Assembly (NCBI GenBank): GCA_027061995.1
Contig: JAMOUT010000075.1
Span: forward strand, 92 to 64,091
Length of the DNA stretch: 64,000 bases
Direction of reading: 5' to 3'
From: Candidatus Aminicenantes bacterium
GTDB lineage: Bacteria > Acidobacteriota > Aminicenantia > JAMOAD01
Positions within the stretch are counted from its first letter, which is position 1; the number at the start of each line of letters is the position of its first letter. The notes beneath the pieces were generated by a model. That model searched no databases and was not told where the DNA came from. It saw only the letters and a program-made list of their open reading frames with translations. Positions 2,721-39,455 of this stretch are shown piece by piece. The position numbers were made by a program, and so were the translations under genes.

Positions 2721-3958
2721 GAGCTGAAATCATAGCAATCGGCTCCGAACTTTTAACCCCGTATAAAACTGATACAAACTCATTGTATCTGACGGAAAAA
2801 CTTCTTGAAACCGGGATAAAAACAGATTATAAAACAATTGTCGGAGACAGTAGAGAAACTCTTTATAAAGCTGTAAAAGATGCTTCAAAAAGGGTTCAAC
2901 TAATAATTACGACAGGGGGATTAGGGCCTACGGAAGATGATATAACGAGAGAGGTTGTCGCTAATTTTCTTAAAAAAGAGTTAATTCTGCATGAAGATAT
3001 AGTTTCGGATATAAAAAAACATTTTTCATTCAGAAAACTCAAGATGCCTGAAATAAATATAAGGCAGGGTTTTGTGATTGACGGAGCCGAAATAATTAAA
3101 AACAGTGTAGGGACCGCCCCCGGGCAATGGTATGAAGATGAGAACATTAAAATTGCGATTCTTCCGGGTCCTCCTTCCGAGATGAAACCTATGGTTGAAA
3201 ATTTTCTGCTTAAAAAATTAAAAAAATATTCCTCTTTTCATTATAAAACAAGGAGCATGCGAATAGTAGGACTTACAGAATCCGCAGTTGAAGAAAAAAT
3301 AGAGGATATAATATCGGGATTAAAAAATCCGTGGGTTAATATACTCGCAATTCCCGGCCAGATAGAGATTAATATTATGGCACGGGGAAAAGAGGGCAAA
3401 GATGAAGCTCTTTTAAAAGGGGAAGAGGTTTTTAAAAAAGTTTACGATAGATTGAAAGAACATGTTTTTACACTTCAAAAGGATAAATTTGAAAAAGTTA
3501 TAGGAGAGATGCTTTTAAAATCAAAAAGGGATATCGCTGTTGCCGAAAGCTGCACGGGTGGTCTTCTTGCAAACAGAATAACGGATATATCGGGAAGTTC
3601 CGCTTATTTTGAAAGGGGTGTTGTTTCATATTCTAACAGAGCAAAGATAGAGATGTTAAAGGTAAAACAAGAGACAATCGAAAAGCATGGGGCTGTTTCA
3701 AAAGAGACCGCAAAAGAGATGGCGGAAGGGATAAGAAAACTTGCTGATACGCACTATGGAATCGGGATTACGGGGATAGCCGGACCTACCGGAGGAACTA
3801 TGGAAAAACCGGTGGGCCTTGTTTATATATCTCTTTCAACTCCCGAAAAAACCGAAGTTTTTCAATACAGATTCATAGGGAGAAGGGAAAAAATAAAATG
3901 GCAATCATCTCAACAAGCTCTTTATCATCTTTGGAAAGATTTGAAAGGGGATGAATAA
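2717..3958 (+). CDS. cinA: CinA-family protein (MoCF-binding N-domain plus C-terminal nicotinamide-nucleotide amidohydrolase domain)
   Basis: The N-terminus MRAEIIAIGSELLTPYKTDTN is typical of CinA. It has the C-terminal CinA/PncC domain and is ~410 aa. Confidence 0.85.
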   Translation: MRAEIIAIGSELLTPYKTDTNSLYLTEKLLETGIKTDYKTIVGDSRETLYKAVKDASKRVQLIITTGGLGPTEDDITREVVANFLKKELILHEDIVSDIKKHFSFRKLKMPEINIRQGFVIDGAEIIKNSVGTAPGQWYEDENIKIAILPGPPSEMKPMVENFLLKKLKKYSSFHYKTRSMRIVGLTESAVEEKIEDIISGLKNPWVNILAIPGQIEINIMARGKEGKDEALLKGEEVFKKVYDRLKEHVFTLQKDKFEKVIGEMLLKSKRDIAVAESCTGGLLANRITDISGSSAYFERGVVSYSNRAKIEMLKVKQETIEKHGAVSKETAKEMAEGIRKLADTHYGIGITGIAGPTGGTMEKPVGLVYISLSTPEKTEVFQYRFIGRREKIKWQSSQQALYHLWKDLKGDE

Positions 3959-4883
3959 TCGCTGTTTTCTCGGGCTTGGTTCTAATCTCGGGGATAAAAA
4001 AGAAAATCTCCGAAAAGCAAAAGAACTTTTAATACAAAAAAATATCAAAATAATTAATGAATCCACTATATATGAAACCAAACCAATGTATTATTCGGAG
4101 CAGGATAATTTTCTCAATCAGGTTATCGAGGTTAAAACAGATTATCAGCCCGATGAATTATTGGAAATAATATCCGAGATAGAAAAAAAATTAAAAAGGG
4201 TCAGAAAAATAAAATACGGTCCGAGAACAATTGATATCGATATCCTGTTCTACGGTGATAAGATAATAATGAGAGAAAATTTGATAATTCCTCACCATAG
4301 AATCATTGAGAGAGAATTTGTTCTTGAGCCCCTTTGTGAAATTGCCGGAGATTTTATCCATCCCGAACACAGAAAAACAATGTGCGAACTCAAGGAGGAA
4401 CTTATCCGAGAAAACAGGAAAACAAAATTTTTATGCGATGCAATGCTTGGTGATATTGCCGAATGGTTAAGATTAACGGGGTTTTTTGTTTTTTATAATC
4501 CTGATGCGGATGATAATGAATTGGTCAGGCTCTCCTCCGAAAAAGGGTATATACTTTTAACTCGTGATAAAGAATTGTCAAAAAGGAAAAATATAAATGC
4601 TTTATATATAGAATCAAAAGAATTCAAGGGAACAATCAGAGAAATTTTTAAAAAACTTAAACTTTCCATAGATGAAAAAGATATTTTTTCAAGATGCCCG
4701 ATATGCGGAGAAAAACTGATTGATATTGATAAAGATGAAGTCAAACTTTTTATTCCCATTAGAATTTATGAAGAGCATGATAAATTCAAAATGTGCAGAA
4801 AATGTGAGAAAATCTATTGGAAAGGGGAAAAATATAAAAATTTATACAATCAATATCTTGAAATAAAAGATATCTTAGAGTAA
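3951..4883 (+). CDS. folK: Fusion of 6-hydroxymethyl-7,8-dihydropterin pyrophosphokinase (HPPK, FolK) with a C-terminal Mut7-C/DUF82 PIN-like RNase domain and zinc ribbon
   Basis: The N-terminal half has HPPK motifs (GLGSNLGD, ETKPM, GPRTIDIDILFYGD, HPRxxEREFVLxPL). The C-terminal half (FLCDAMLGDIAEWLRLTGF...LLTRDKEL) plus CPICG...CRKCEK matches Mut7-C architecture. Confidence 0.7.
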   Translation: MNNRCFLGLGSNLGDKKENLRKAKELLIQKNIKIINESTIYETKPMYYSEQDNFLNQVIEVKTDYQPDELLEIISEIEKKLKRVRKIKYGPRTIDIDILFYGDKIIMRENLIIPHHRIIEREFVLEPLCEIAGDFIHPEHRKTMCELKEELIRENRKTKFLCDAMLGDIAEWLRLTGFFVFYNPDADDNELVRLSSEKGYILLTRDKELSKRKNINALYIESKEFKGTIREIFKKLKLSIDEKDIFSRCPICGEKLIDIDKDEVKLFIPIRIYEEHDKFKMCRKCEKIYWKGEKYKNLYNQYLEIKDILE

Positions 4884-7151: not shown

Positions 7152-8018
7152 TCAATTAATTTTGTTCAGATATTCCCCGTATTCATTATTAATCTCTTTT
7201 GCGAGTCTCAAAAGTTGCTTTTTATCTATATACCCCATTTTATATGCTATCTCTTCAATACAGGCGATTTTAAACCCTTGTCTCTCCTCTATGGTCTTAA
7301 TGAAAATCGATGCATCTATCAAGGATTCATAAGTTCCCGTATCAAGCCATGCATATCCTCTTCCGAGAAGCTCCACTTTTAATTTTCCTTTTTTAAGAAA
7401 TTCCTGATTTACGGCGGTTATTTCAAGCTCTCCCCTTTTTGATGGTTTTATTTTTTTCGCTATATCAATAACACTATTATCATATATATATAAACCTGTT
7501 ACCGCATAATTGCTTTCGGGATTTTGCGGTTTTTCCTCAATACTTGTAACATTGCCGTTTTTATCAAATTTAACAACTCCGTATCTTTCGGGGTCCTTTA
7601 CAAAATATCCGAAAACCACCCCGCCACCATTTTTCTCAACATGTTTTATTCCCGCGGTTAATATATCGGGAAGTCCGTGCCCGTAAAAAATATTATCTCC
7701 GAGAATCATTGCAATGCTATCGGAGCCAATGAACTGTTCCCCAATTATAAATGCCTGAGCAAGCCCCTCGGGTTTCGGTTGCACCTGATAAGATATCTTT
7801 AATCCTATCTGTGAACCATCATTAAGAAGTTCTTTAAATTTGGGTGTATCTTCCGGTGTCGATATTATAAGTATCTCTTTAATCCCCGAAAGCATCAATA
7901 CTGAAAGAGGGTAATAAATCATGGGTTTATTATAAACCGGAAGAAGTTGTTTACTTACGACCTTTGTTATAGGGTTAAGCCTTGAACCTGTTCCTCCGGC
8001 TAAAATTATCCCTTTCAC
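7152..8018 (-). CDS. rmlA: Glucose-1-phosphate thymidylyltransferase
   Basis: [38 protein letters not shown] is a near-canonical RmlA/RfbA N-terminus. The size is 288 aa. Confidence 0.9.
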
Positions 8019-8033
8019 TTTTTCTCCCTAAAT

Positions 8034-8768
8034 TTATAAATCCTTATAAAATCTTTTTTTAACATATTCAAACACAATATCAGCGGATTCTTCTATTGTA
8101 AGTTTTTCAGTATCAAGCAGGATTTCAGGATTTGCAGGTTCATCATAATCATCGGAAACTCCCGTAAAATTTTTTCTTTTTCCTTCAAGAGCCTCTTTGT
8201 AAACCCCTTTATCATCTCTTTTAATACATGTTTCAACGGAAGCTTTAACGAAAATTTCAATGAAATTCTTTGTCATCTCTTTAACACAATCTCGCGTCTC
8301 CTTATAGGGAGACACGAATGAAGCAACGACAGAGATTGAATTTTTTTGAAGAATCTTTATAAGAATTCCCACCCTTTTAAGATGAAGTTTTCTGCTTTCT
8401 CTGTCAAACCCGATTTCAGGAAGAAGATCTCTTATATCTTTACTATCTATTCTTTCAATGGGGATATACTCCCATTTTTTCAGTTTTTCATATACTTTAT
8501 CAGCTATTACGGTTTTCCCTGATTTGGGGAGCCCCGTAAACCATAGAACAAATGGTTCAATTTTTTTCTTTCCTATTTTGACTTTATTCCACAATCTTTC
8601 ATGAAGAAAATAAACCATTATTTTAATAACAAGTTCGATAAGTCCGGCAGCTATCGCCAGATCAAGTCTTCCGAAAAAAACAAAAATAATAATTGTTGTC
8701 GTTAAAGTGGCAAAAAATCTCCATGAAATCGCTTTTAAAAGTGATCTGAGTTTTGTTTCAATATACAT
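8034..8768 (-). CDS. cysC: Adenylylsulfate (APS) kinase with N-terminal ~70-aa two-helix membrane segment (DUF2061-like)
   Basis: A P-loop (GLPKSGKT) and the APS-kinase motif SFVSPYKETRD are present. The N-terminus MYIETKLRSLLKAISWRFFATLTTTIIIFVF... is hydrophobic. Confidence 0.75.
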   Translation of the reverse strand: MYIETKLRSLLKAISWRFFATLTTTIIIFVFFGRLDLAIAAGLIELVIKIMVYFLHERLWNKVKIGKKKIEPFVLWFTGLPKSGKTVIADKVYEKLKKWEYIPIERIDSKDIRDLLPEIGFDRESRKLHLKRVGILIKILQKNSISVVASFVSPYKETRDCVKEMTKNFIEIFVKASVETCIKRDDKGVYKEALEGKRKNFTGVSDDYDEPANPEILLDTEKLTIEESADIVFEYVKKRFYKDL

Positions 8769-12856: not shown

Positions 12857-14140
12857 CTATAAAAAATATCCCTCTAACTCTTTTCCCACATCATGTATAA
12901 AAGGATGTCCTTCAAGAGCAAATCCATATGAATCAAGAAGAAGAGCGTTATCCTGTGAATGCATCCCTTCAAAAATAGATTCGGAATATTTTTCTTTTTT
13001 GGTAATTCCCGCTTTTAAATCAAACCCGTAGTTTGACAAAAGAACAATGTCGGGAGCTTTATCAAAGTATTTACCTTTGTAAATCTCCTCTTTGAAAAAA
13101 ACCTCTTTTATCACTTGCTTATTTTCTATTTCCAAACTTAAAAATCTCTTTTTTATCTCTTCTCTTATTTTATCATAATTTTTTTTCTTCACTTTTCCTT
13201 TTCCGTATTTACCTTCAAGATGTATGTATATTCTTGAAGGATCAAGAGCAAAAACAGTGGAATTTTCATCTATGCTCTTAAGATTTTTCGGATTTTCATC
13301 ATTAAATTTCAGATACCCCCACTCCTTGAGATATTGAGAAAGGTAAACCTCATATTTTAAAGAGGTGAAACCATGATCGGATAAGATTATAAAGGGAATC
13401 CCTTTTTTATCCATCTCATCGGTAATTTCACCTATTATTTCATCAACTTTTTTATAATACCCTATAAAATCATTATGGTTCGGATGGTTCAAATCATCTT
13501 TTGCCTTAAATAAAAAATGGTGAAGTCTGTCTGTTCCCGTTATGATAAAATAAAAAAGATTCCATTTTTCTTTTATCAGTTTTTTATACAATAAATATCT
13601 TTTATCAAGTGTCTCGTGAAGTTCTTTCATAAAATATTTTTTATCCTTTTTCCCCAAAGCTGTGTCAACATCAACCTTATAATCAATCTCTTTAAGATAT
13701 GATAAAAAATTCTTAGGATATACCGCGTTTTCCAAATCAAGAGCAACAAAACCGGAGATAAGATAACCGTTAATTTTTCTGACAGGATAAGTATTGGGAA
13801 GGTTTATTACAATGGATTTTTTTCCTTTTTTTTCTATCTTTTCCCACATTGTTTTAACAGGTAAAAGGGGAAAAGTGGGAAATCTATAACCGTAATTTTT
13901 ATTATTTATCTCCATGAATCCGTATATACCGTGTTCACCCGGATTCATTCCTGTCATAAAAGATGTCCATGAAACAGAGGAAATTTCGGGAACAGGAACC
14001 TGTGTTTTAATAAATTTGTATTTTTCAATCAATCTTTTAAAATTCGGCATTATCCCTTTTTCCGCAAATTCCTTAACAAGTTCAAAAGGAACACCGTCAA
14101 TCCCTATAATCATAAATTTTCTTGTTTTTTTAAAAAGCAT
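12857..14140 (-). CDS. Alkaline-phosphatase-superfamily enzyme (type I phosphodiesterase / nucleotide pyrophosphatase-like)
   Basis: MIIGIDGVPFEL...PVPEISSVSWTSFMTGMNPGEHGI is the PF01663-like metal-site region. The start is chosen at the internal Met preceded by GAGGGAA. The ORF track extends to 14167, so an alternative start at 14110 is possible. Confidence 0.5.
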   Translation of the reverse strand: MLFKKTRKFMIIGIDGVPFELVKEFAEKGIMPNFKRLIEKYKFIKTQVPVPEISSVSWTSFMTGMNPGEHGIYGFMEINNKNYGYRFPTFPLLPVKTMWEKIEKKGKKSIVINLPNTYPVRKINGYLISGFVALDLENAVYPKNFLSYLKEIDYKVDVDTALGKKDKKYFMKELHETLDKRYLLYKKLIKEKWNLFYFIITGTDRLHHFLFKAKDDLNHPNHNDFIGYYKKVDEIIGEITDEMDKKGIPFIILSDHGFTSLKYEVYLSQYLKEWGYLKFNDENPKNLKSIDENSTVFALDPSRIYIHLEGKYGKGKVKKKNYDKIREEIKKRFLSLEIENKQVIKEVFFKEEIYKGKYFDKAPDIVLLSNYGFDLKAGITKKEKYSESIFEGMHSQDNALLLDSYGFALEGHPFIHDVGKELEGYFL

Positions 14141-15113
14141 TCTTCCCTCTTTTTTTAAACCAATCATAGGTTAATTCAAGCCCCTTCTTCAAATTAATAT
14201 CAGGTTTAAACTCTAAAATTTTGTTTGCTTTTCGGATAGATGTCCAATTTCTCCTTATTTCCCCTTTTCTTTCAGGTTTATATTCCACTATTACATCCTC
14301 TTTGACAATATCTTTAATATATTTAACAAGTTGATTCACCGAAGTTTCCACTCCTGTTCCGAGTTGAAAAATCTCCCCACCGACTCCTTTTTTTTCTATC
14401 GCCCTTATAATCACATTCGCAAGATCTCCGGCATAAATAAAATCTCTTGTTTGATTGCCGTCCCCGTAAATATAGATACTCTTTTTCCCCATAATCCTTT
14501 TTAAAAATTCCGCCACTACACTCCCCTTATGATAGGAGTAAATACCATAAACATTTGAGAATCTCAAAACAACGGTATTAACTCCAAAGCTTCCGTAAAA
14601 AGCCTTGCAATACCCTTCTCCCGCTAACTTTGATGCCCCGTAAGGTGAAAGGGGGGAGGGGATTTTACCCTCATCAAGAGGGGGAAGTTGCTCTCCGAGC
14701 GGTGCGGCGGAGGAAGAAAAAACAAATTTCTTAATCTTATATTTTACGGAATAATTTAAAAGATTTAATATCCCCATAATATTTATCTCAGCATCACTAA
14801 AAGGGTTTTCAATGGAAGGAATTACCCCTGTTTGAGCCGCAAGATGAACAACAAAATCAGTTGCTTCAAAAATATTATCAAGCTTTTTATCTCTTACATC
14901 CCCTTTTATAAAGATAACATCCGCTTTTTCAGATAATCTTTCCGAATATTCAGCTTTATTTTTTTTTACTATATCTTTCAACAACTCCAAATTACCCGAT
15001 GAAAGATTATCAAGAATTATAATTTTATATTTTCCGATTTTTAAAATATAATCCGTAAGATTTAATCCTACAAACCCTGCTCCGCCTGAAATTAAGATTG
15101 TCTTTTTCATCAT
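14130..15113 (-). CDS. NAD-dependent nucleotide-sugar epimerase/dehydratase (GalE-like)
   Basis: Rossmann motif ILISGGAGFVGLNL. It belongs to the SDR extended family and is ~330 aa. Confidence 0.75.
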   Translation of the reverse strand: MMKKTILISGGAGFVGLNLTDYILKIGKYKIIILDNLSSGNLELLKDIVKKNKAEYSERLSEKADVIFIKGDVRDKKLDNIFEATDFVVHLAAQTGVIPSIENPFSDAEINIMGILNLLNYSVKYKIKKFVFSSSAAPLGEQLPPLDEGKIPSPLSPYGASKLAGEGYCKAFYGSFGVNTVVLRFSNVYGIYSYHKGSVVAEFLKRIMGKKSIYIYGDGNQTRDFIYAGDLANVIIRAIEKKGVGGEIFQLGTGVETSVNQLVKYIKDIVKEDVIVEYKPERKGEIRRNWTSIRKANKILEFKPDINLKKGLELTYDWFKKRGKNAF

Positions 15114-15745
15114 TTTAATATCTCTCTTAATACTATGAAGAACTGATTAAAATGCCTCCATGCAATCCCACGAGGTTTTTCAACCGGAATCTCTTTAATA
15201 TTAATCTCTTTTATTCTTGCCCTTTTTTTATAAAAAAATAAAACAAAAACTCCGCATGTGCATCCCCCTTTTAATTCTTCAATACCGTTCGCGAATGATT
15301 TTCTAAATGCTCTAAAGCCTGTCCCAGCATCATAAACACCTGTTTTAAGCCTTGTGATAAAAGAGATAATTCTTTCCGATATTCTGGGAATCTTTCTTCT
15401 TCTGCCGAGAACAAGGTCAGCTTTATCGTCGATAATCGGTTTTACAAGTTCTGAAATTCTGTTAGCAGGATGCTCGCCGTCAGCATCAATTGTTACTATA
15501 ATATCAGAATCTATTAAATTTATCCCTTTTATTATGTTTTTAAGATATCCTAAATTTCTCGAATTTTTTATAACCTTCGCCCCTTTTTCTTCCGATATTT
15601 GAGAAGTATTATCTTTACTTGCATCATCTATTACAACAACTTCATCAACATGTTTTTTTACATCATCTATAACTTTACCTATTCTTTTCTCTTCATTATA
15701 AGCGGGGATAAGCGCTGTAACTTTATACCTGTTATTTATTCCCAT
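15110..15745 (-). CDS. Family 2 glycosyltransferase (DPM1-like, polyprenyl-phosphate sugar synthase type)
   Basis: VTALIPAYNEE...VVVIDDASKDNT...TIDADGEHP are GT2 DxD-type motifs. It is a short 211-aa form. Confidence 0.7.
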   Translation of the reverse strand: MGINNRYKVTALIPAYNEEKRIGKVIDDVKKHVDEVVVIDDASKDNTSQISEEKGAKVIKNSRNLGYLKNIIKGINLIDSDIIVTIDADGEHPANRISELVKPIIDDKADLVLGRRRKIPRISERIISFITRLKTGVYDAGTGFRAFRKSFANGIEELKGGCTCGVFVLFFYKKRARIKEINIKEIPVEKPRGIAWRHFNQFFIVLREILK

Positions 15746-16079
15746 TATTTATTATTTTTATCGCATCATCTATAAGATTTGCGAGTTGCTTTTTTGATGA
15801 TGCTCCTATAATCTCTTTAATTTTCTTTCTCCCTTTAACAATCATGTAAGAGGGAACTCCCTGTATATCATAATCTCTTGCAATTTTTTTATTGATATCA
15901 ACATTCACTTTTACAAACTCAACTTTATCTTTATACATCTCAATTATATTGTTTAACAGAGGCTCCATCATTCTGCAAGGGGGACACCATACAGCCCAAA
16001 AATCAATAAAAACAGGCTTTGAACAATTTAATACTTTATCATAAAATTCCTTTTCATCGATAGTTTTAAGATCCCACAT
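15732..16079 (-). CDS. trxA: Thioredoxin
   Basis: The WCPPC active site (FWAVWCPPCRMMEP) is present. The size is 115 aa. Confidence 0.85.
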   Translation of the reverse strand: MWDLKTIDEKEFYDKVLNCSKPVFIDFWAVWCPPCRMMEPLLNNIIEMYKDKVEFVKVNVDINKKIARDYDIQGVPSYMIVKGRKKIKEIIGASSKKQLANLIDDAIKIINNGNK

Positions 16080-16095: not shown

Positions 16096-17562
16096 TTAAA
16101 ATTTATCTATTATCTCAATGACTTTTGATTCTCTCTTCTCCCCCGACCAATGAGTTTTAGGAAGAATGACATGTTTTTTCTCCTCAATCCTTGCTTTAAT
16201 ATGAGGTTTTGTCAAAAGTTTAAACATTCTGTATATCTCCTCTTCAAGTTTAACATTGGGTTTAAAACCGAATTTATCGGGAAGATTTTTATATATGGCT
16301 TCATAAGGGTGTTCGTCAGCTTCGACTCTCGGATTTTCAAGTCTCTGAATCTTGGGAGCTAATCCGAATTCCTCTTTTCCGATTTTCGCCACGGTTGTAG
16401 CAAGTTCATACAGGGAATAAACCCCGGATAATTGGTTTACAACATCATAAACTCCCGGTGCCGGTGGATTATTTATAAGCCTTGTCATACATTGCATAGC
16501 ATCAGACAGAGCAAGAAACCCTCTCTTCTGATGTCCCGAACCATACAGAGTTAGGGGAATATCCACAATCGCTTGAGCAACGAACCTGTTTATAACTGTT
16601 CCAAACCATTCATCAACATCAAACCTTGTCCTTAAATCATCATCCTCTTCAAAAGCGGGAATATGAACTCCGTAGATAACTCCTTGCATTATGTCATAAG
16701 ATCTGAGCCACCAGTATTTACAAGCTTCGTAAACATTAAAAGTATCCTGCACTTTAGAAACATGGTAAAAACTAACGGGATCTCTCGGGGTTAATTCTCC
16801 TCCGAGACTCCACTCTCTATCTCCCCATTTTAAAACAGCGTCAGCGGGGAAAAGCCCCTCGAAAATAGGTCTTCCCGTAAGAGGAGTCCCGTATTCTCCC
16901 ATTGTTCCCAACTTTATTAAAGGGGTATTCGGAACAATATCCTTTATGGCGAAAAGGAGTCTTAGCGTTCCCATAACATTGTTGGTTTGAACAAAAACAG
17001 CATGCTCATCATCCACCATACTGTAAGGCGCAGACGGGTTTTCAGCATAATGAACTATCACATCGGGTTTTACCTCTTCAAGAAACTCCCTTAATCTGTT
17101 TCTATCCAAAAGATTTATCTCTCTGAAATTTATATTAATCCCGAGAACCTCTTTTGCTTTTCTTAATCTTTGTGTCATTCTTGCTATGGGAACTATTGTA
17201 TGAGAGCCTTTTTCCTTAACCCAATTTCTCCTGCTGTAATTATCTATTCCGCTTATCTCATAACCCAAACCACCGAGCCAAAGAGCAAGAGACCACCCGA
17301 GATAGCCGTCTATACCGAGTATCATAACTTTCATCTTTTTTAATTTATATCCGTATTCAGATTTTTCCCACTCGGGACATTCCTCAAAATTTACTGAAGA
17401 CGGGTCAAAAAAACCGAGGTCAGGTCTCCTTTTACACGAGCCCATATTAAACCCCTCTTCCACCTCACCGGCACTCTGTCCGCAAGCTCTGAAATCAACA
17501 CCGCCTTTAAATTCAAACATCGGACAATTCCAACATGTGTTATCAGCATTATGTTCATTCAT
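16096..17562 (-). CDS. sqdB: UDP-sulfoquinovose synthase-like enzyme (SQD1/SqdB/Agl3 family) with ~75-aa Cys-rich N-terminal extension
   Basis: MILGIDGYLGWSLALWL...IDNYSRR...TIVPIARMTQRL...VVHYAENPSAPYSM and FYHVSKVQD parallel the SQD1 motifs (GGDGYCGW, IDNLxRR, TPIASI, VVHFGEQRSAPYSM, YHLSKVHD). The extension carries C10, C13, C27, C43 and C62. Confidence 0.65.
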   Translation of the reverse strand: MNEHNADNTCWNCPMFEFKGGVDFRACGQSAGEVEEGFNMGSCKRRPDLGFFDPSSVNFEECPEWEKSEYGYKLKKMKVMILGIDGYLGWSLALWLGGLGYEISGIDNYSRRNWVKEKGSHTIVPIARMTQRLRKAKEVLGININFREINLLDRNRLREFLEEVKPDVIVHYAENPSAPYSMVDDEHAVFVQTNNVMGTLRLLFAIKDIVPNTPLIKLGTMGEYGTPLTGRPIFEGLFPADAVLKWGDREWSLGGELTPRDPVSFYHVSKVQDTFNVYEACKYWWLRSYDIMQGVIYGVHIPAFEEDDDLRTRFDVDEWFGTVINRFVAQAIVDIPLTLYGSGHQKRGFLALSDAMQCMTRLINNPPAPGVYDVVNQLSGVYSLYELATTVAKIGKEEFGLAPKIQRLENPRVEADEHPYEAIYKNLPDKFGFKPNVKLEEEIYRMFKLLTKPHIKARIEEKKHVILPKTHWSGEKRESKVIEIIDKF

Positions 17563-17654
17563 TAGATATCTCCTCCCTATTTAATAATTATATTTTATCA
17601 TAAAAAGCCATTAAATAATAATATTAATACTAATTTACAGTTAATTTTATGGAG

Positions 17655-19013
17655 CTATCTTCCATTAAAATTTAGGACTGTTTTTATTGTTTTAATTAAA
17701 ATAATCAAATCAAAAATAAAACTCATATTTTTTATATAGTATAATTCATACTTAAATTTTTCCATTTGTTGTTCTACGGTATTGATATATCCCATTTTTA
17801 CCTGCGACCAACCGGTAAGTCCGGGCTTGATAAAAAATCTCAAATCATAGAAAGGGATTTTCTCTTTCAGCATATCTGCAAAATATTTTCTTATCGGTCT
17901 ATTCCCGATTAAACTCATATCTCCCTTTAGGACATTAATTAATTGAGGTAATTCATCAAGCCTTGAAAATCTAAGAAATTTTCCTATTTTTGTTATTCTC
18001 GGATCATTTTTCCCGGACCATTTAGGTCCTGTTTCCTTTTCAGCATCAATAATCATAGTTCTGAATTTTATTAATTTAAAAGGTTTTTTATACCATCCCA
18101 ACCTCTCTTGTATAAAAAATACGGGTCCCCTTGAAGTAAGCTTAATTAAAAGGGGGATTATAAGAAAAACAGGAGATGAAAAAGCCAAGATTAATAGAGA
18201 TATTATAATATCAAACAATCTTTTAAGTTTATAATAAGAGGAGATATTAATAAGATAATTTTTTTCATAAACAATATGCCAAACATTCTCAAAGCTTATA
18301 TCAAAAATTTTCCCTGATAAACTCATATAAAAATTATCAAAATCATATATAAAAAATCCTTTGAATTTCAGTTCTATTATCTCTTCCATTTTATATTTTA
18401 TCTCTTTATTTTCGAGAGAGATAACAATGATATCATCTTTTCTGAAATTGCTTTCTATTTGTTCCACAAAACTCTTTATTTTATCATCGGTAACAAACTC
18501 AAACATAAAAAGAGGATTATTTTCAAATTCATTAATAATTATCTTTTGCAGCTTTTTCGAAAACCCTAAAAAAAACACCCTTTGTTTATTAATCTTTCTT
18601 TCAAATTTTGAGTAGAAAAAAAATCTTTGCAGTATAAGAAGGAGAAAATAAAAAGGAAAAATTAAAATAAATACCAATCTTCCGATAAAATAATACGGGA
18701 TAAAATAAAATATAAAACCAATAAAAATTGATACGAATACCAAAGAAAAGAAGATTTTAACAATATTCTTACTAAAATTACCAATCTCCCATCTTTCGTA
18801 AACTCCGAAAATATAAAAAGACAAAATTACCAAGGGAGATAAAATAAGATAAACGAGTAATATTTTTCTTAGAAGAACGCAAGAAAACACACTGCTATCA
18901 TACAAAGTTCTCGCAAAATAAGACAATATAATAGCCAATAAAAGAATTATTTGGTCCAAAAGGAGTAATTTAACCCTTACCTTGTTAAAAATATATGAAA
19001 AATAATCCTTCAT
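17655..19013 (-). CDS. Polyprenyl-phosphate hexose-1-phosphate transferase (WbaP/ExoY 'bacterial sugar transferase' family), initiating enzyme
   Basis: The C-terminal domain FDIIISLLILAFSSPVFLIIPLLIKLTSRGPVFFIQERLG...FKLIKFRTM...DELPQLINVLKGDMSLIGNRP is canonical PF02397. N-terminal TM helices are present. Confidence 0.85.
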   Translation of the reverse strand: MKDYFSYIFNKVRVKLLLLDQIILLLAIILSYFARTLYDSSVFSCVLLRKILLVYLILSPLVILSFYIFGVYERWEIGNFSKNIVKIFFSLVFVSIFIGFIFYFIPYYFIGRLVFILIFPFYFLLLILQRFFFYSKFERKINKQRVFFLGFSKKLQKIIINEFENNPLFMFEFVTDDKIKSFVEQIESNFRKDDIIVISLENKEIKYKMEEIIELKFKGFFIYDFDNFYMSLSGKIFDISFENVWHIVYEKNYLINISSYYKLKRLFDIIISLLILAFSSPVFLIIPLLIKLTSRGPVFFIQERLGWYKKPFKLIKFRTMIIDAEKETGPKWSGKNDPRITKIGKFLRFSRLDELPQLINVLKGDMSLIGNRPIRKYFADMLKEKIPFYDLRFFIKPGLTGWSQVKMGYINTVEQQMEKFKYELYYIKNMSFIFDLIILIKTIKTVLNFNGR

Positions 19014-29861: not shown

Positions 29862-31355
29862 TTATTCAACATAGCCTAATGATTTTATTTTCCGAATCTC
29901 TTTTTCCGAGGCTTTTTTCACGGTTGTTTTCCTTTTGATTTTCTTAAGCAGTTTGAATAAAATCCCTTTATATTTTCTTCTCAGAGATGTTCCCCTTAGT
30001 AAACTGTGAATCTCGTAAGGGTCATCAATTATGTTAAAGAATTCTTCAACACCGGTAGTCTTATAAATGTAATGATATCTTTTATCAATTATAGAATATT
30101 TATCACCTTTTTCATAAACAACATAATCCGGTATTTTTTTTAGCTGTTTTCTTGTTTTAAATACTTCCCTTTGTGCGAAGGAAAATGATTTATTGTATTT
30201 CTTGCCTGAGTTATAAATAAAGTGAATCAATGATTTCCCACTTAAAGTATCTTTTTCTTTATTATTCAGACTTAGAAGATCAATAATCGTAGGTAAAATA
30301 TCCGGATGTTCAACTACTTCGGTTATTTTCTTACCCATCTCTTTGTTGTTAAAATAGAAAATCAAAGGAATATGGATATGCTCCTTATATATATGTTTTG
30401 CATGAGTAAACCAATTATGATTGCCTAAACCTTCACCATGATCTCCGGTTATAATCCATAATGAATGTTTATTTAATCCTTTTTTTTCAAAATAAAAAAA
30501 AATTTCTCTTAAAACAGAATCCATATACATTATCTCTGCATCATAAAGATTAATCTGTTCATACATTATATCAATAGCACTCATTCCTTCATGTTTTAAA
30601 TCTCCCATCTCCTTAAAATATCTATTTTTCTCTCTATGTTTAAAAACTTCACCTTTGTAAACAAGGGGATTAATTCTATGTTCTTTTTCCCAAAAGTTTA
30701 TCATTTTCCTCTTATCTGTCAGGTTTTTAATCTTAGATAAAAAAATATTTGGAGGATAATAAGGTCTATGGGGATCAAACAGGTGAATCCAAATAAAGTG
30801 CTTATCTTTATTCTCTTTTTTTTTAAAACTTGAAAAATATTCCTTTATTTTCCGAAAAGTCAGTTTTGCATCTCTGTATTTTTTACCATATTTCTTTTTA
30901 ATCCTCGGGTCAATAGGTTCATTGTAAAAATCAAACCCTTGATATAAATTACATGCTCCAAACAAACCAACACTTGTAAAAGCATAAGTTTTAAACCCCT
31001 TTTCTTTTAAAATCTCAGCTATTGTTTGAAATCTCTCATCTAATTTAAACCAATTTTTCAAAACCCCGTGAATGCGAGGATAAAGCCCTGTGAAAATTGA
31101 TGAGTGAGCAGGGGCAGTCGAAGCAATGTTGGAGTAAGCATTATTAAAAATAATTCCTTCTTTAGCAAGATTATCAATGAATGGTGTTATTTTTCTTGGA
31201 TAACCATAGCAGCTTAAATGATCGGCTCTCAGAGTATCAATGGTTATTAAGAAGATATGATCTACCCTTATTTTCCCCCGTTTTTTTAACAAATAATAAG
31301 AAACAGATAACAATATTAATAATAGAGTGAAAAATAATAGTGTCTTTTTGTTCAT
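29862..31355 (-). CDS. Sulfatase-family (alkaline phosphatase superfamily) hydrolase/transferase, probably a phospho-substituent transferase rather than a true sulfatase
   Basis: A signal/TM segment is followed by ITIDTLRADHLSCYGYPR (the sulfatase metal site). The CxPxR formylglycine motif is absent (STAPAHSS instead). Confidence 0.55.
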   Translation of the reverse strand: MNKKTLLFFTLLLILLSVSYYLLKKRGKIRVDHIFLITIDTLRADHLSCYGYPRKITPFIDNLAKEGIIFNNAYSNIASTAPAHSSIFTGLYPRIHGVLKNWFKLDERFQTIAEILKEKGFKTYAFTSVGLFGACNLYQGFDFYNEPIDPRIKKKYGKKYRDAKLTFRKIKEYFSSFKKKENKDKHFIWIHLFDPHRPYYPPNIFLSKIKNLTDKRKMINFWEKEHRINPLVYKGEVFKHREKNRYFKEMGDLKHEGMSAIDIMYEQINLYDAEIMYMDSVLREIFFYFEKKGLNKHSLWIITGDHGEGLGNHNWFTHAKHIYKEHIHIPLIFYFNNKEMGKKITEVVEHPDILPTIIDLLSLNNKEKDTLSGKSLIHFIYNSGKKYNKSFSFAQREVFKTRKQLKKIPDYVVYEKGDKYSIIDKRYHYIYKTTGVEEFFNIIDDPYEIHSLLRGTSLRRKYKGILFKLLKKIKRKTTVKKASEKEIRKIKSLGYVE

Positions 31356-32653: not shown

Positions 32654-33793
32654 TTATCTTCTCCTCTTCATTTCTTTACCTTTAAGATTAATTTCCGTAG
32701 AAGCAAGGACTTCATGAGTTTCAGCATTCCTGTAAACAACCTTAAATCCTCCGATTCCGGGGCCAAGCTTCATGCCTGTATTTATTGTTACAAATCTCTT
32801 ATTAGTTCTCATCCCTAATCTTCTTTTCGCAATAAATCTTCCCGTTTCTCCCTTTAATACAAGACCTCTTTTTGTAATTTTCCCGATTGTTTTAATAGGC
32901 TCTTCTCCTCTATACAAAACTATTTCTATTTCGGCTCCACCTTTCGCTAATCTTTCTCTGAAAACAGGATTTTCAAATCTTTTAAGTTTATTAATTTCCA
33001 ATCTTAAGCATTGAGGACAATAGGGACCGGGCTGCGGACCATCAGGACCAAAAGGACCCCAAGGACCCCAACCTATAATTATGCGAGCATTTCTGAGTTT
33101 TTCTATAATCCACGGATCAATATGGATACCGTTATCACTGCAGTTATCACTAATTGTAAAAACATCGCCATTGTCATAGACAGCATTATCAACGGTTTTT
33201 ACTCTTACTACATAAGAACCATTGGGAATAGTGTTAGGAATTGTCCATGAGAAAGAACCGTCATTGGCAGTCGGATTTACTATGATAGTTTGCAAAGTAG
33301 TCAAATCAGTCTTATATAGCGTAATCTTAACACTATCATTCATGCTACCGCTCTTTGTCCATCTGATTGTGTGAGAACTTCCTTTCTCTAAACAATCTCC
33401 ACTACGCGGATCGGTTACCGTAATCGTGCCACCCGTCGGAGCAGATGTTGCGATATTGAAAACATCACTATCATCATAAACCTGATTATCAATTGTCTTT
33501 ACCCTGACAATATACTGACCGTTAGGAATGGAATTAGGAATTGTCCATGAGAAGGAACCATCATTAGCGGTCGGCCTAACTATTATCATTTGTAATGTCG
33601 TATGATCGGGTTTATACAGCGTAATTTTAACATTATTGTCCATACTACCGCTCTTTGTCCATCTGATAGTATATGTGCTTCCCTTGTGCCATGTTGAGCC
33701 CGAGTGGGGATTTGTTACTGTTATGCTTTGTGCATAACTCATTGCAGTTATGAAAACCGCAATCAATAAAAACAATAAAACTTTTTTCTTCAT
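32654..33793 (-). CDS. Secreted modular protein, family member 1: signal peptide, 2x Kre9/KNH-like ~90-aa domains, variable Gly/Pro-rich C-terminus
   Basis: The start is set at ATG 33793 after GGAGG. The signal peptide is MKKKVLLFLLIAVFITAMSYAQS. The repeats read ITVTNPHSGSTWHKGSTYTIRWTKSGSMDNNVKITLYKPDHTTLQMIIVRPTANDGSFSWTIPNSIPNGQYIVRVKT. Confidence 0.8.
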   Translation of the reverse strand: MKKKVLLFLLIAVFITAMSYAQSITVTNPHSGSTWHKGSTYTIRWTKSGSMDNNVKITLYKPDHTTLQMIIVRPTANDGSFSWTIPNSIPNGQYIVRVKTIDNQVYDDSDVFNIATSAPTGGTITVTDPRSGDCLEKGSSHTIRWTKSGSMNDSVKITLYKTDLTTLQTIIVNPTANDGSFSWTIPNTIPNGSYVVRVKTVDNAVYDNGDVFTISDNCSDNGIHIDPWIIEKLRNARIIIGWGPWGPFGPDGPQPGPYCPQCLRLEINKLKRFENPVFRERLAKGGAEIEIVLYRGEEPIKTIGKITKRGLVLKGETGRFIAKRRLGMRTNKRFVTINTGMKLGPGIGGFKVVYRNAETHEVLASTEINLKGKEMKRRR

Positions 33794-33828
33794 TTGAAAA
33801 CCTCCTTTAGTTTTTAATAAATAGTATA

Positions 33829-33845
33829 TGCATTTTTTGTGCCAT
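33829..33845 (-). promoter_or_regulatory. Sigma54-like -24/-12 element (minus strand reads TGGCACaaaaaaTGCA)
   Basis: The GG-N10-GC spacing is exact. It lies ~40 bp upstream of the start codon. The homologous element is conserved upstream of all family members. Confidence 0.45.
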
Positions 33846-33918
33846 AGCGCATTATTTAAGAAAACGGTTGATATCATTGCATTTTATTTTGTCCACCACT
33901 ATTCATCAAACAACCGAA

Positions 33919-33958
33919 CGACAGAATTGTCGGCCGGTTAGACAAAAATGTCGGCCGG
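33919..33958. promoter_or_regulatory. Tandem palindromic upstream sites (cGACAgaatTGTCggccgg / GACAaaaaTGTCggccgg), candidate enhancer/UAS
   Basis: A GACA-N4-TGTC dyad recurs upstream of every family member, 70-110 bp from the -24/-12 element. Confidence 0.45.
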
Positions 33959-34045
33959 TTTTAAAATTATTGACAAAAATGTTAATCTTCTCCGGAATTG
34001 TTTTCCCCTTTTGGCTATAATTATATTTGATTTCGCGTATTGATT

Positions 34046-34082
34046 TAAAAAAAAAGCCGCCTTTTCATCTGAAAAGGCGGCT
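34046..34082 (-). terminator. Rho-independent terminator of family member 2 (agccgccttttc-atct-gaaaaggcggct followed by a T-run on the minus strand)
   Basis: A 12-bp GC-rich stem is followed by a run of 9 T on the coding strand. Confidence 0.7.
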
Positions 34083-34103
34083 TATATATCTGATACGGTT
34101 TTT

Positions 34104-35621
34104 TTATTTCAGCATATCATTAATTGCTTTTCCACTTTTACTCATACTATTGTTATTCGGATTACAATCATCATTAGTTTTAAGATTATCAGCTCCTATA
34201 TCAGGGTCATATGTAAGATAAACTTTGAATGTGGGCGGAAACTCCCCTTCATTCGGAGAACTCGAATTCCAATCCATCTCATAGTTTATTGTGATAGTTT
34301 CTCCCGCTTTAAGATTCTGAAAATTTTTCGTTTTTAAGGGATGAGTAGGATCTCCCATATCCATAACTATCATCTGTTGGTTAGGGTGGCTTATGTAATC
34401 CGCATTGCCCACATTCTTAACTACCCCTGTAATTCTGACTTTCCCTCTGAATTGACTATACTTTCTTACTATACTAAATTTTATATCCACTACGGCAAGG
34501 TCAGGACACTTTTTAGTAAGCCTTGCATTTTGTAAAATCTTAGGGTTAATTGTAGTAATAAGTGAATTATTATAAACTCTTCCATGCTCCATACCTTTAA
34601 CTTTTAGTTCCTTTTCACCTATCGGGTTTTTACCGGAAAAAACCACCAATTTGTAACCGCGAGGATTCCTTCCCATCATTTCCTTTTGTTTAGGTGTTAA
34701 TCTTAAATCAAACATGCTCGGCATACTATTAAAAAAGACTCCTCCTCTTTTTACCATAGGTCTGAATACACCAAAATTATAAATGACCTCTCTTCCTTTC
34801 ATCAACTTTATAGTTACCGGCTGTTTAATGTTTGATTTCTCAAGAGCATTTTTAATACCACCGATTCCACGAATTCTGGGACCCGGTCCGTGCATGTAAA
34901 TAGCAAGTTCGGCAAGATTCAGGCTTGCACGAAAACGCCCGAAGTCAATAGAAGGAATTCCACTATCACAATTATTACTAATAGAAAAAATGTCACTATC
35001 ATCATATACGGTATTGTCAACTGTTTTTACTCTTACAACATAAGAACCTTCGGGAATAGAGTTCGGGACTACCCAAGTATAAGCACCATCATTGGCAGTC
35101 GGGTTTACTATGATAGTTTGTAAAGTAGTCAAATCAGTCTTATATAGCGTAATCTTAACACTATCATTCATACTACCGCTCTTTGTCCATGTGATCGTGT
35201 GAGAACTTCCTTTTTTCCAACAATCTCCACTATGCGGATCGGTTACCGTAATCGTGCCACCCGTCGGAGCAGGTGTTGCGATATTAAAAACAACACTATC
35301 ATCATAAACAGCATTGTCCATTGTCTTTACTCGGACAATATACTGGCCATCAGGAATGGAATTGGAAACCACCCACGAGAAAATGCCGTCATTAGCAGTC
35401 GGCCTAACTATTATCATTTGTAATGTCGTATGATCGGGTTTATACAGCGTAATTTTAACATTATTATCCATACTACCGCTCTTTGTCCAAGTGATATTAT
35501 AAGTGTTTCCCTTATACCATGTTGAACCCGAGTGGGGATTTGTAACGGTAATGCTTTGAGCATAACTAAAGGCAATCATAAAAACTGCAATTAAAAAAAT
35601 CATTAAAACTCTTTTCTTCAT
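34104..35621 (-). CDS. Secreted modular protein, family member 2: signal peptide, 2x Kre9/KNH-like domains, C-terminal CARDB-like domain
   Basis: MKKRVLMIFLIAVFMIAFSYAQS is followed by the same tandem domains. The C-terminal CPDLAVVDIKF...ITGVVKNVGNAD resembles CARDB. Confidence 0.8.
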   Translation of the reverse strand: MKKRVLMIFLIAVFMIAFSYAQSITVTNPHSGSTWYKGNTYNITWTKSGSMDNNVKITLYKPDHTTLQMIIVRPTANDGIFSWVVSNSIPDGQYIVRVKTMDNAVYDDSVVFNIATPAPTGGTITVTDPHSGDCWKKGSSHTITWTKSGSMNDSVKITLYKTDLTTLQTIIVNPTANDGAYTWVVPNSIPEGSYVVRVKTVDNTVYDDSDIFSISNNCDSGIPSIDFGRFRASLNLAELAIYMHGPGPRIRGIGGIKNALEKSNIKQPVTIKLMKGREVIYNFGVFRPMVKRGGVFFNSMPSMFDLRLTPKQKEMMGRNPRGYKLVVFSGKNPIGEKELKVKGMEHGRVYNNSLITTINPKILQNARLTKKCPDLAVVDIKFSIVRKYSQFRGKVRITGVVKNVGNADYISHPNQQMIVMDMGDPTHPLKTKNFQNLKAGETITINYEMDWNSSSPNEGEFPPTFKVYLTYDPDIGADNLKTNDDCNPNNNSMSKSGKAINDMLK

Positions 35622-35657
35622 TTGAAAACCTCCTATAGTTCCTTAATAAACAGTATA

Positions 35658-35674
35658 TACATTTTTTGTGCCAT
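35658..35674 (-). promoter_or_regulatory. Sigma54-like -24/-12 element (TGGCACaaaaaaTGTA)
   Basis: Paralogous to 33829-33845, with GT in place of GC at -12. Confidence 0.4.
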
Positions 35675-35750
35675 AGAGCATTATTTTAGAAAACGGTTGA
35701 TATCATTGCTTTTAATTTTGTTCTCCCTTATGCACTAAACGATGAATCGA

Positions 35751-35785
35751 CTAATATGTCGCCTAAACAGACAGAAATGTCAGTC
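35751..35785. promoter_or_regulatory. GACAgaaaTGTC dyad plus half-site, candidate UAS
   Basis: Same position relative to the promoter as in member 1. Confidence 0.4.
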
Positions 35786-35841
35786 AATTTTAAAATTATT
35801 TTCCCCTTTTGGATATGATTATGTTGCTTTAATATTGATTT

Positions 35842-35874
35842 AAAAAAGCCGCCTTTTCGTTGGAAAAGGCGGCT
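35842..35874 (-). terminator. Rho-independent terminator of family member 3 (agccgccttttc-gttg-gaaaaggcggct)
   Basis: The stem is nearly identical to the terminator at 34055-34082, so it was duplicated along with the gene. Confidence 0.7.
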
Positions 35875-35896
35875 CTATCTCTGAGACAGTTTTTAT

Positions 35897-37651
35897 TTAT
35901 TCAATAAAATCAAATACTGTGATATAGGTGCCTTCAACATTATGAGCCTTGATTGCTTTACTTGAAATAACATGGTTTTTATCTTTTATAACAAGCGCAT
36001 ACTTTATTAGCTTTCCGCACGGAGCTCTCTTAACCTTAACAACATATTTGTTGCTATACGGATAATAACAGGTAGAATTCATCATCTTTTTGTTTATGGG
36101 AATCTCTTTCAATCTTTCCCATGTTTTTGTTTTTTCTCTGTAATATTTAATATATGCTTCTTCGGCTCCGACAAAATCATACAGGAATGCAACCGTTCCT
36201 TCATTATGGTAAGTCACTCCTGTTTCAACTTTTTTTGTTTGATCGACGATTTTAAAACTTTTGATATAAGGTTTGCGTTTAACCCAAAGAATTGAATAAG
36301 AATTATTGTCTTTTCCTATTGATTCCATTTCGATTGTTATATCTCTGTATTTATCATGAATTTGAAAGGAACCTATGCTTGAGTCTTTTTTACTATCATA
36401 TGTTACCCAATTCTTTTTAGTTTTAGTATCATATATTTTACCCCTTACAGCATCAACAAAATTATAATAGATTAAAGGTGGAATTTGTCCGCAATTCACC
36501 CAAACAGTTTTATTTTTGGTATCTTTAAAAAAAAGTTTTGATTTTATATTTATATCTCCTCGCTTAACCTTTAAGTTTAACAAAGCCTTATTGTTATCTT
36601 CGTTCGCTTCGTCAATCAATCTGCTTGAATCAACCATAACCTGAAGAGTATAATAACCGGCTTTAGTATATTTAATATTGTTTAACCTGATAACAATTTG
36701 CTCATTCCTTTTTAAACCATATTTCACAAATCCTTTTGATATGCTATTGTCATTATTATAAGCATAGGTTTTAAAAAATTTATCTGCCGGAATATCATTC
36801 CCGATATTCTTTATTGTTACTTTAATGGAAAAAGGTCTGTTTGAATACAAGGTGGAAGGCTCTGTTTCAACTTTTATAATTTTAAGATCAGGTTTGTATT
36901 CCATGAATTTTTGCAATGGCTCCGCGAGAGTATTATTATATGTTTTTAATGTTGCAGTTTCCGGTTGATTATAATTGTCTTTGATAAAATCTGTCAAAGA
37001 ACTTCTTTTAATTGTAAAAACAGCACTATCATCATATACCTTGTTATTCATCGTTTTCACTCGGATAATATACTGTCCATCAGGTATGGAATTAGGAATT
37101 GTCCATGAGAAGGAACCATCATTGACGGTCGGCCTAACTATTATCATTTGTAATGTCGTATGATCGGGTTTATACAGCGTAATTTTAACATTATTGTCCA
37201 TGCTACCGCTCTTTGTCCATCTGATTGTGTGAGAACTTCCTTTCTCTAAACAATCTCCACTATGCGGATCGGTTACCGTAATCGTGCCACCCGTCGGAGC
37301 AGGTGTTGCGATATTAAAAACAACACTATCATCATAAACCTGATTATCAATTGTCTTTACCCTGACAATATACTGACCGTTAGGAATGGAATTAGGAATT
37401 GTCCATGAGAAGGAACCATCATTAGCGGTCGGCCTAACTATTATCATTTGTAATGTCGTATGATCGGGTTTATACAGCGTAATTTTAACATTATTGTCCA
37501 TACTACCGCTCTTTGTCCATCCGATAGTATATGTGCTTCCCTTGTGCCATGTCGAGCCCGAGTGGGGATTTGTAACGGTAATGCTTTGGGCATAACTAAA
37601 GGCAATCATAAAAACTGCAATTAACAATAACATTAATACTTTTCTTTTCAC
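35897..37651 (-). CDS. Secreted modular protein, family member 3: signal peptide, 2x Kre9/KNH-like domains, long variable C-terminus with CARDB-like segment
   Basis: MKRKVLMLLLIAVFMIAFSYAQS is the signal peptide (GTG start). KPDLKIIKVETEPSTLYSNRPFSIKVTIKNIGN is CARDB-like. The protein is 584 aa. Confidence 0.8.
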   Translation of the reverse strand: MKRKVLMLLLIAVFMIAFSYAQSITVTNPHSGSTWHKGSTYTIGWTKSGSMDNNVKITLYKPDHTTLQMIIVRPTANDGSFSWTIPNSIPNGQYIVRVKTIDNQVYDDSVVFNIATPAPTGGTITVTDPHSGDCLEKGSSHTIRWTKSGSMDNNVKITLYKPDHTTLQMIIVRPTVNDGSFSWTIPNSIPDGQYIIRVKTMNNKVYDDSAVFTIKRSSLTDFIKDNYNQPETATLKTYNNTLAEPLQKFMEYKPDLKIIKVETEPSTLYSNRPFSIKVTIKNIGNDIPADKFFKTYAYNNDNSISKGFVKYGLKRNEQIVIRLNNIKYTKAGYYTLQVMVDSSRLIDEANEDNNKALLNLKVKRGDINIKSKLFFKDTKNKTVWVNCGQIPPLIYYNFVDAVRGKIYDTKTKKNWVTYDSKKDSSIGSFQIHDKYRDITIEMESIGKDNNSYSILWVKRKPYIKSFKIVDQTKKVETGVTYHNEGTVAFLYDFVGAEEAYIKYYREKTKTWERLKEIPINKKMMNSTCYYPYSNKYVVKVKRAPCGKLIKYALVIKDKNHVISSKAIKAHNVEGTYITVFDFIE

Positions 37652-37687
37652 TCTTAATTCCTCCTTTAATTTTAATAAAAAAAATAT

Positions 37688-37703
37688 TCAATTTTTATAC
37701 CAA
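37688..37703 (-). promoter_or_regulatory. Sigma54-like element (TGGTATaaaaaTTGA)
   Basis: Conserved position. The region 37652-37710 is identical to 42305-42362. Confidence 0.35.
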
Positions 37704-37775
37704 AACATATTCTTCGGAAAAATATTTAACCGCCTCGTTCTTTATAAAAAAACAAAATACTACCTTAAATAGATT

Positions 37776-38078: not shown

Positions 38079-38106
38079 TATATCTTCGTTTTGTTATTAT
38101 TTCCTA

Positions 38107-39423: not shown

Positions 39424-39455
39424 TATAACCTCCTCTAAAAAAGTAAAAAAGTTTA

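Follow-up and report, generated by a model that had tools for sequence, protein, structure and literature searches.

The locus described here lies in a 64,000-nucleotide stretch of DNA from Candidatus Aminicenantes bacterium (GenBank assembly GCA_027061995.1, contig JAMOUT010000075.1, positions 92 to 64,091), which we call the window. Positions are those of the window unless a locus name precedes them, and features lie on its reverse strand unless stated otherwise. The central gene (16096..17562) is a predicted open reading frame (ORF) of 488 residues, in which an N-terminal five-cysteine domain (residues 1-76; 17335..17562) is followed by the catalytic domain of an SQD1-type synthase (residues 77-488 and the stop codon; 16096..17334), an extended short-chain dehydrogenase/reductase (SDR). 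Behind it come a thioredoxin gene, a small family 2 glycosyltransferase (GT2) gene, a GalE-like SDR gene and, last of the five, a gene for a 436-residue protein of the alkaline phosphatase (AlkP) superfamily (12857..14167; Pfam Phosphodiest, PF01663, 142.7 bits against a cut-off of 23). We read the five as one operon because neighbouring genes overlap or nearly abut. The thioredoxin gene (15732..16079) has its own AAGGA and begins 16 nt beyond the stop codon of the synthase; its 115-residue product scores 99.5 bits with TIGR01068 (cut-off 96.8) and carries WCPPC at the active site in place of the canonical WCGPC. The kind of enzyme, SQD1-type, is already known; what is new here is the domain family and its operon, and in a full-text search of the literature we found no description of the family, the domain or the operon.

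An earlier, sequence-only reading of this DNA had described an acidic segment of about 75 residues with a CxxC pair and three more cysteines, and had placed the beginning of an SQD1-like catalytic domain at about residue 78. Both descriptions hold. By direct count, residues 1-76 contain 14 Asp or Glu against 9 Lys or Arg and exactly five cysteines (C10-x2-C13-x13-C27-x15-C43-x18-C62), and residues 77-473 align to Arabidopsis SQD1 (PDB 1i24/1qrr) with an E-value of about 1e-80. The same reading had named a mis-called start as its possible undoing, and this fear proved unfounded. A Shine-Dalgarno sequence read from the DNA, GGGAGGAG (17570..17577), lies 7 nt 5' of the ATG at 17562, whereas no ribosome-binding site precedes Met77, where the sequence is AAATTAAAAAAG; nor is there an in-frame start 5' of Met1, the frame being closed by stop codons. 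Between codons 1-76 and those of the nearest orthologue, also from Aminicenantes (L015), 28 differences are synonymous and 6 are non-synonymous. Furthermore, the extension and its invariant cysteines are kept in hundreds of orthologues, and AlphaFold2 (AF2) gives the extension a confident fold (pLDDT 84-97 outside a variable loop at residues 26-36). All of this argues against an annotation artefact in which translation starts at Met77 and the 76 upstream codons are untranslated, and we regard the probability of such an artefact as negligible. The extension can be taken as a real cysteine module that is maintained by selection. A collection of 15 billion proteins lacks the exact sequence of the synthase with any of five candidate starts, but contains both the neighbouring PF01663 protein (P0217) and the thioredoxin (P0337).

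The sequence-only reading had further called the extension unique, and this must be given up. Thousands of homologues emerged when 5.8 billion proteins were searched, and the best 120, which we examined, are mostly 480-520 residues long and 66-97% identical to the query, nearly all of them covering 96-100% of it with the extension included. Scanning one genome per species, we found the module-bearing family in at least 225 genomes, and the 80 of these that were listed are all metagenome-assembled genomes (MAGs) or single-cell genomes of uncultivated organisms. The bacterial hosts listed include Planctomycetota (with Kuenenia- and Fuerstiella-like members), Omnitrophota, Chloroflexota, Aminicenantes and Acetothermia, and further hosts are Thermodesulfobacteriota, Poribacteria, Auribacterota, Hydrothermarchaeales and Promethearchaeota (Asgard archaea). 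In the window synthase, the N-terminal domain is 89-92% identical to its counterparts in Aminicenantes MAGs. Judged from these sequences, the extension defines a widespread and unstudied enzyme family of uncultured bacteria and archaea. That plant SQD1 does not have it was correctly stated before, and archaeal Agl3 is without it as well.

In alignments of 25 and of 121 sequences the extension follows the motif TCWNCP...G.VDFRACGQ...C.RRP.lG..P....F..CP.W, with RP(E/D)LG after C43, CP(E/Q)W at C62 and an arginine adjoining C43. The five cysteines are invariant in the 121 sequences, and among 34 fused and stand-alone sequences the only invariant columns are C10, C13, C27, C43, C62, G50 and P54. 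The module is joined to the SDR without a linker, and it is also found as a separate protein of 70-100 residues. Residues 1-76 gave no match in Pfam (E up to 0.1), NCBIfam (E up to 0.01-0.1) or the PDB sequences (E up to 10). A hidden Markov model search of 1.84 billion representative proteins returned 44 clusters at E up to 0.001, and those inspected belong to the same family, to its stand-alone version, or to fragments and chimeras of these; a 1544-residue protein among the 44 (P0212) has repeats that match the profile only in part. It is well supported that the module is an undescribed, autonomous five-cysteine domain of about 75 residues. In one 102-residue protein (P0191), the first 22 module residues (MHNAHKTCWNCPAIDLAGKVDF) continue directly into a thioredoxin at WASWCPPC, a chimera that could be an artefact of assembly or the result of a deletion between VDF(R/W)A strings that resemble each other.

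The sole fold match of the module, and a weak one, is the [4Fe-4S] small subunit of 4-hydroxyphenylacetate decarboxylase. Against its gamma subunit (2y8n_B) hhalign gave a probability of 0.2%, and Foldseek with the module returned no match. The likeness, which is by inspection only, lies in the ligand spacing, C-x2-C-x13-C-x(about 17)-C-P in the subunit and C10-x2-C13-x13-C27-x15-C43...C62-P63 in the module; unlike these small subunits, which resemble high-potential iron-sulfur proteins (HiPIPs), the module offers five ligand candidates, not four, and has unrelated partner enzymes. The zinc-ribbon or rubredoxin geometry that had been suggested was not recovered: it needs two CxxC knuckles, the module has a single one with three isolated cysteines, and there is no fold match to either type.

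The catalytic domain resembles SQD1, SqdB and Agl3 in its extended-SDR fold, in about 38-45% identity over residues 77-473, in its GxxGxxG and TMG...YxxxK motifs and in the histidine after the catalytic tyrosine. Pfam places an Epimerase domain at residues 79-373, and a Foldseek search with the synthase put 1qrr on top with a TM score of 0.87 normalised to the target. The NAD site (G83-x2-G86-x2-G89) is invariant, as are T220-M221-G222, Y266, H267 and K270; the signature [ST]-M-G...Y-x3-K separates sulfoquinovose synthases from other nucleotide-sugar SDRs (PMC8987622). In Agl3, mutagenesis has shown that H95, M145, E147, Y148, Y182 and K186 are required (PMC4388408), and the synthase keeps all six; His95, Met145, Glu147 and Tyr148 correspond to its conserved H171, M221, E223 and Y224. 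However, the family departs from SQD1, SqdB and Agl3 in several respects: it has the 76-residue five-cysteine domain, it is obligately linked in operons to thioredoxin and PF01663, it lies in glycan and not in sulfolipid (sqdX/SQD2) clusters, and its catalytic domain differs in two features. At the position of Arg101 stands Pro176, invariant in 121 family members, so that EQRSAPY in SQD1 becomes E-N/C-P-SAPY in the family; the R101A mutant of Agl3 is inactive (PMC4388408). Loop 227-262, conserved in the family and modelled with low confidence, is longer than in those enzymes. Because of these two features and because the score against the NCBIfam equivalog UDPsulfquin_syn (NF041015; 432 bits over residues 77-472) falls below its cut-off of 575, we see in the domain an SQD1-type enzyme with a probably changed handling of the nucleophile, and in UDP-sulfoquinovose synthase activity a candidate function. 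In an 845-residue relative (P0195), an intein-like insertion of about 350 residues, recognised by reading the sequence, splits the protein between KLG and TMGEYG at the active-site threonine; judged by ORF length, L071:2856-5408 (851 residues) and L144 (857 residues) probably carry the same insertion.

The same departures could be taken to mean that the chemistry itself is different, such that the 4-keto-5,6-ene would still be made and sulfide or persulfide, delivered by an Fe-S or cysteine relay, would yield a 6-thio sugar, with thioredoxin resolving an enzyme-S-S-sugar adduct. The sub-threshold equivalog score, the proline in place of an arginine essential in Agl3 (PMC4388408) and the family-specific loop with its low model confidence all speak for this, and a need for reductant would fit the release of a disulfide-linked product. 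On the other hand, the remaining SQD1/Agl3 catalytic residues and the diagnostic TMG are kept (PMC8987622), and the loci repeatedly contain genes for sulfation or for 3'-phosphoadenosine 5'-phosphosulfate (PAPS), with no association with sulfide or persulfide carriers. We consider chemistry of this kind improbable.

Gene neighbourhoods were compared in 80 genome loci, with ORFs called and profiles built for this analysis, and in an independent set of 76 metagenome loci. A thioredoxin gene lies within 500 nt downstream of the fused gene and on the same strand in 62 of 62 genome loci with enough flank and in 37 of 38 metagenome loci. Thus, the thioredoxin to which the sequence-only reading drew attention is a real partner. 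Its motif in the related loci is CPPC in 66 cases, another CxPC in 6 and a monothiol CxPS in 5, and five further thioredoxins read by eye carry CPPC, CVPC or CLAC. Monothiol forms with WC[LVI]PSQ occur in four species from three phyla (L003:6191-6523, L041:11490-11822, L043:8205-8546 and L058:2694-3065). Because it is the resolving cysteine that is replaced by serine in these variants, the first, nucleophilic cysteine appears to be the constant feature of the cassette thioredoxin. As the module is real and selectively maintained and the neighbouring thioredoxin is a real partner, a metal or redox role for the module is plausible. Directly after the thioredoxin in 31 of the 80 genome loci, all of them from Planctomycetota, lies a gene for a 199-residue sulfotransferase-like protein of PF13469 (for example L091:11902-12501) with the PAPS-binding motif GLPRSGTS, and at L020:2513-3742 the thioredoxin and this protein share one uninterrupted stop-to-stop frame.

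The strongest partner of the module, overlooked in the sequence-only reading, appears to be the PF01663 protein. Of 65 genome loci, 55 have a gene of this subfamily no more than 700 nt upstream of the fused gene, as do 41 of 43 metagenome loci; counted on either side, it is present in 40 of 45 genome loci. Fusion of module and SDR is seen in 79 of the 80 genome loci. The PF01663 protein also accompanies the stand-alone module where no SQD1 is nearby, and it adjoins this module in 9 of 12 loci. It is directly upstream in L009, L012, L014 and L095, as it is in 5 of 7 other loci whose flanks were usable. Thioredoxin was found in 0 of 9 stand-alone loci, and an SQD1-like gene was likewise missing from the surrounding 5 kb. 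The case that stands apart is L097/L098, in which the operon includes, 6 kb upstream, an SQD1-like gene of 400 residues without the extension. The module would therefore have two partners, PF01663 always and, in the fused form, the dedicated thioredoxin as well. At 34-63% identity, the PF01663 partners make up a single subfamily in which the bimetal ligands and the serine nucleophile are intact, and eight members all keep the motifs GIDG, PEISS(V)SW..TG, TGTDRLHHF, SDHG and (M/K)H(S/T). None is close to a solved structure, their only database name is 'AlkP superfamily phosphohydrolase/phosphomutase', and no fusion of PF01663 to the module or to thioredoxin was found among the 120 best PF01663 homologues or among the module domain matches.

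At L043:1763-8546 and L018:4036-12995 the cassette is contiguous with genes for ATP sulfurylase, adenosine 5'-phosphosulfate (APS) kinase and another PF01663 paralogue, which is divergent (24-28% identity to the partner subfamily), and in L050 it has these genes beside it; in L009:4620-11148 the same three, with a TauE-family transporter, are beside the stand-alone module. A further observation concerns a C-terminal tail, acidic and then ending in (E)[RK]L[RK]xLGY[ILM]-COOH, that is common to unrelated proteins in 46 related loci and looks like a shared docking or targeting peptide. Its bearers include small unknown proteins upstream of PF01663, ribbon-helix-helix (RHH) proteins, a PF01663 paralogue, one thioredoxin and one synthase (examples: L091:7458-8519; L009:7430-7645 and 7855-8061; the C-termini of the L033 synthase and the L050 thioredoxin; L043:3827-5359; L025:14840-16636). 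It is present in 48 of the 12,635 ORFs of the loci and in 0 of 417 window ORFs, and it is also absent from the Aminicenantes relatives.

These neighbourhoods bear on whether the module is catalytic at all. It might instead be a structural or assembly domain, its cysteines binding zinc or a structural Fe-S cluster and the module only docking the synthase to PF01663 and other proteins of a multi-enzyme complex for glycan assembly, while sulfite would come from the free cellular pool and the thioredoxin would serve as a non-redox subunit, a chaperone or a thiol keeper. The tie of the stand-alone module to PF01663 without SQD1 and thioredoxin nearby fits such a role, as do the monothiol thioredoxins, the tail ('...RLxxLGY[ILM]') of the 46 loci, which suggests the assembly of a complex, and the fact that the Fe-S small subunits of glycyl radical enzymes, to which the sole fold match belongs, have no proven catalytic role. 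However, without thiol chemistry it is hard to see why 99 of 100 loci should keep a thioredoxin, and never one without the CxPC nucleophile; a Cys4 site needs one cysteine fewer than the five that are invariant; and the universal loss of Arg101 suggests altered nucleophile handling. A purely structural module is, in our judgement, somewhat unlikely.

Alternatively, the module could be a redox switch, an O2-labile cluster or zinc-thiolate site that would shut the synthase off upon oxidation until thioredoxin re-activated it. Many of the hosts are anaerobic, and the forward strand of the window holds a complete Rnf-type operon (RnfC, D, G, E, A, B; 52955-57921), followed by an RseC/MucC-like gene, which is consistent with an anaerobic host. 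Cysteine-rich domains serviced by thioredoxin are known as regulators or turnover devices, an example being the zinc finger of class II ribonucleotide reductase (RNR) (PMC5704485). However, a switch leaves unexplained both the linkage of module and PF01663 without SQD1 and thioredoxin and the replacement of Arg101 by proline. It is also disfavoured by the occurrence of the family in Fuerstiella-like Planctomycetota, Fuerstiella being an aerobic genus. Overall, regulation of this kind seems quite improbable.

Our preferred explanation, to which we would give a probability of about 0.42, is a metal- and thiol-based relay that would use thioredoxin to supply the sulfur nucleophile to the SQD1-type SDR. 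The chemistry of SQD1 is redox-neutral, and an obligate thioredoxin therefore points to a reductive step in the supply of the sulfur donor. The relay is suggested by the association with thioredoxin and PAPS genes, by the five invariant cysteines (four plus one, the arrangement of Fe-S APS reductases) and by the arginine beside C43. Four of the five cysteines would hold a metal centre, for which we favour [4Fe-4S] because 4-hydroxyphenylacetate decarboxylase has a HiPIP-like small subunit with a matching C-x2-C-x13-C...CP spacing. Whichever thiol or thiols are left would relay a sulfur oxyanion, for instance as S-sulfocysteine, and relay and thioredoxin together would release sulfite at the SDR active site, which would make the synthase independent of free sulfite. 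PF01663 may act on a nucleotide-bound sulfur donor (APS or PAPS) or on the nucleotide by-product. Epimerisation of the sulfosugar nucleotide would follow, then transfer by the GT2 and finally incorporation into a glycan.

Two points weigh against this relay. ATP sulfurylase or APS kinase genes (sat/cysC) are present in only 3 of 80 related loci, that is, near only about 4% of the cassettes, and the APS kinase of the window, a fusion to DUF2061, a predicted membrane domain at its N-terminus (8034..8768; Pfam, NCBIfam apsK), is more simply explained by a conventional PAPS-type sulfotransferase (PF13469, 27475..28350), the likely user of its product. Thus, although the sequence-only reading was right that the locus contains an APS kinase and the window no APS/PAPS reductase, the weight it put on the kinase is doubtful, and we think it unlikely that the kinase is a dedicated partner. 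Neither a PAPS/APS reductase (PF01507) nor an ATP sulfurylase was found in the 52 window ORFs scanned (of 54 of at least 110 residues).

The logic of the proposed relay is that of CysH, in which four cysteines hold a [4Fe-4S] cluster, a catalytic cysteine forms S-sulfocysteine and thioredoxin resolves this to free sulfite. By this analogy alone, the five invariant cysteines and the dedicated thioredoxin would do the same, here beside a sulfite-consuming enzyme. The synthase differs from CysH in lacking PF01507 (PAPS_reduct) and any similarity to it in sequence, and the binding of a nucleotide would have to fall to PF01663 or to the small protein that resembles a sulfotransferase. In its most developed form, the proposal becomes a sulfur-donor machine unrelated to CysH: module, thioredoxin and PF01663, joined in Planctomycetota by the 199-residue PAPS binder, would move the sulfuryl group of APS or PAPS to a cysteine, thioredoxin would reduce it, and the nascent sulfite would pass to the SDR. 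We consider this complete version unlikely.

Other known systems offer partial parallels. The association of plant SQD1 with ferredoxin-dependent glutamate synthase has been proposed to improve the use of the sulfur donor. This partner is an accessory redox protein (PMC4388408). Whereas the plant complex is non-covalent and involves an unrelated flavo-Fe-S protein, the family described here has a fused mini-domain, its own thioredoxin and PF01663. In class II RNR (PMC5704485), a similarly small cysteine-rich appendage shuttles reducing equivalents between thioredoxin and the active site; however, that tail is C-terminal, zinc-bound and unrelated in sequence, and RNR chemistry is reductive where that of SQD1 is redox-neutral.

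The setting of the operon is an exopolysaccharide (EPS)/O-antigen-type glycan cluster (about 7150 to 32430) with an initiating sugar transferase, GT4 glycosyltransferases, a polymerase, a flippase, the PF13469 sulfotransferase and a sulfatase-family protein. The initiating sugar-phosphate transferase (Bac_transf in Pfam; 17655..19013) lies directly upstream of the synthase. Downstream, the small GT2 (211 residues; Glycos_transf_2 in Pfam; 15110..15745) overlaps the thioredoxin stop codon; its best NCBIfam matches, all below cut-off, are AglJ, PpgS and a Dol-P hexose transferase, and it resembles polyprenyl-phosphate sugar transferases. The GalE-like SDR, a predicted epimerase/dehydratase (327 residues; Epimerase/GDP_Man_Dehyd in Pfam; 14130..15113), overlaps the GT2 by 4 nt. 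A GT2 gene is found downstream in 10 of 45 related loci, and most related loci have a second SDR gene at 0.3-1.7 kb downstream of the synthase gene. The sulfotransferase and the PF00884 sulfatase-family protein (29862-31355) flank the flippase, and the surface polymer is therefore probably O-sulfated; it is possibly also sulfonated. Elsewhere in the window, seven tandem paralogues with Kre9_KNH Ig-like N-terminal domains, some with CARDB, lie downstream of the glycan cluster (32654-47317), with one unannotated 418-residue ORF among them, and a single forward-strand ORF (3951-4883) combines HPPK (folate biosynthesis) and Mut7-C RNase domains.

The carbon-sulfur bond of sulfoquinovose is the product of one enzyme family, and the source of its sulfur is an ongoing question. 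According to the Agl3 study, the mechanism of sulfite transfer in vivo is still unknown (PMC4388408), and a recent review treats free sulfite as the donor, yet as experimentally unproven in cyanobacteria (PMC13436972). The large, phylogenetically broad and uncharacterised branch of synthases described here makes this question testable with three or four recombinant proteins. If the sulfur-donor machine outlined above is real, it would answer the question of the in vivo donor of UDP-sulfoquinovose synthases for much of the uncultured biosphere, including Asgard archaea. This work also adds a new cysteine-rich domain family, the primary partner of which appears to be an AlkP-type enzyme. Furthermore, the locus suggests that sulfonated sugars go into the surface glycans of bacteria and archaea that are non-phototrophic and mostly anaerobic and, if this is true, sediments would have in such glycans a source of organosulfonates that has so far gone uncounted.

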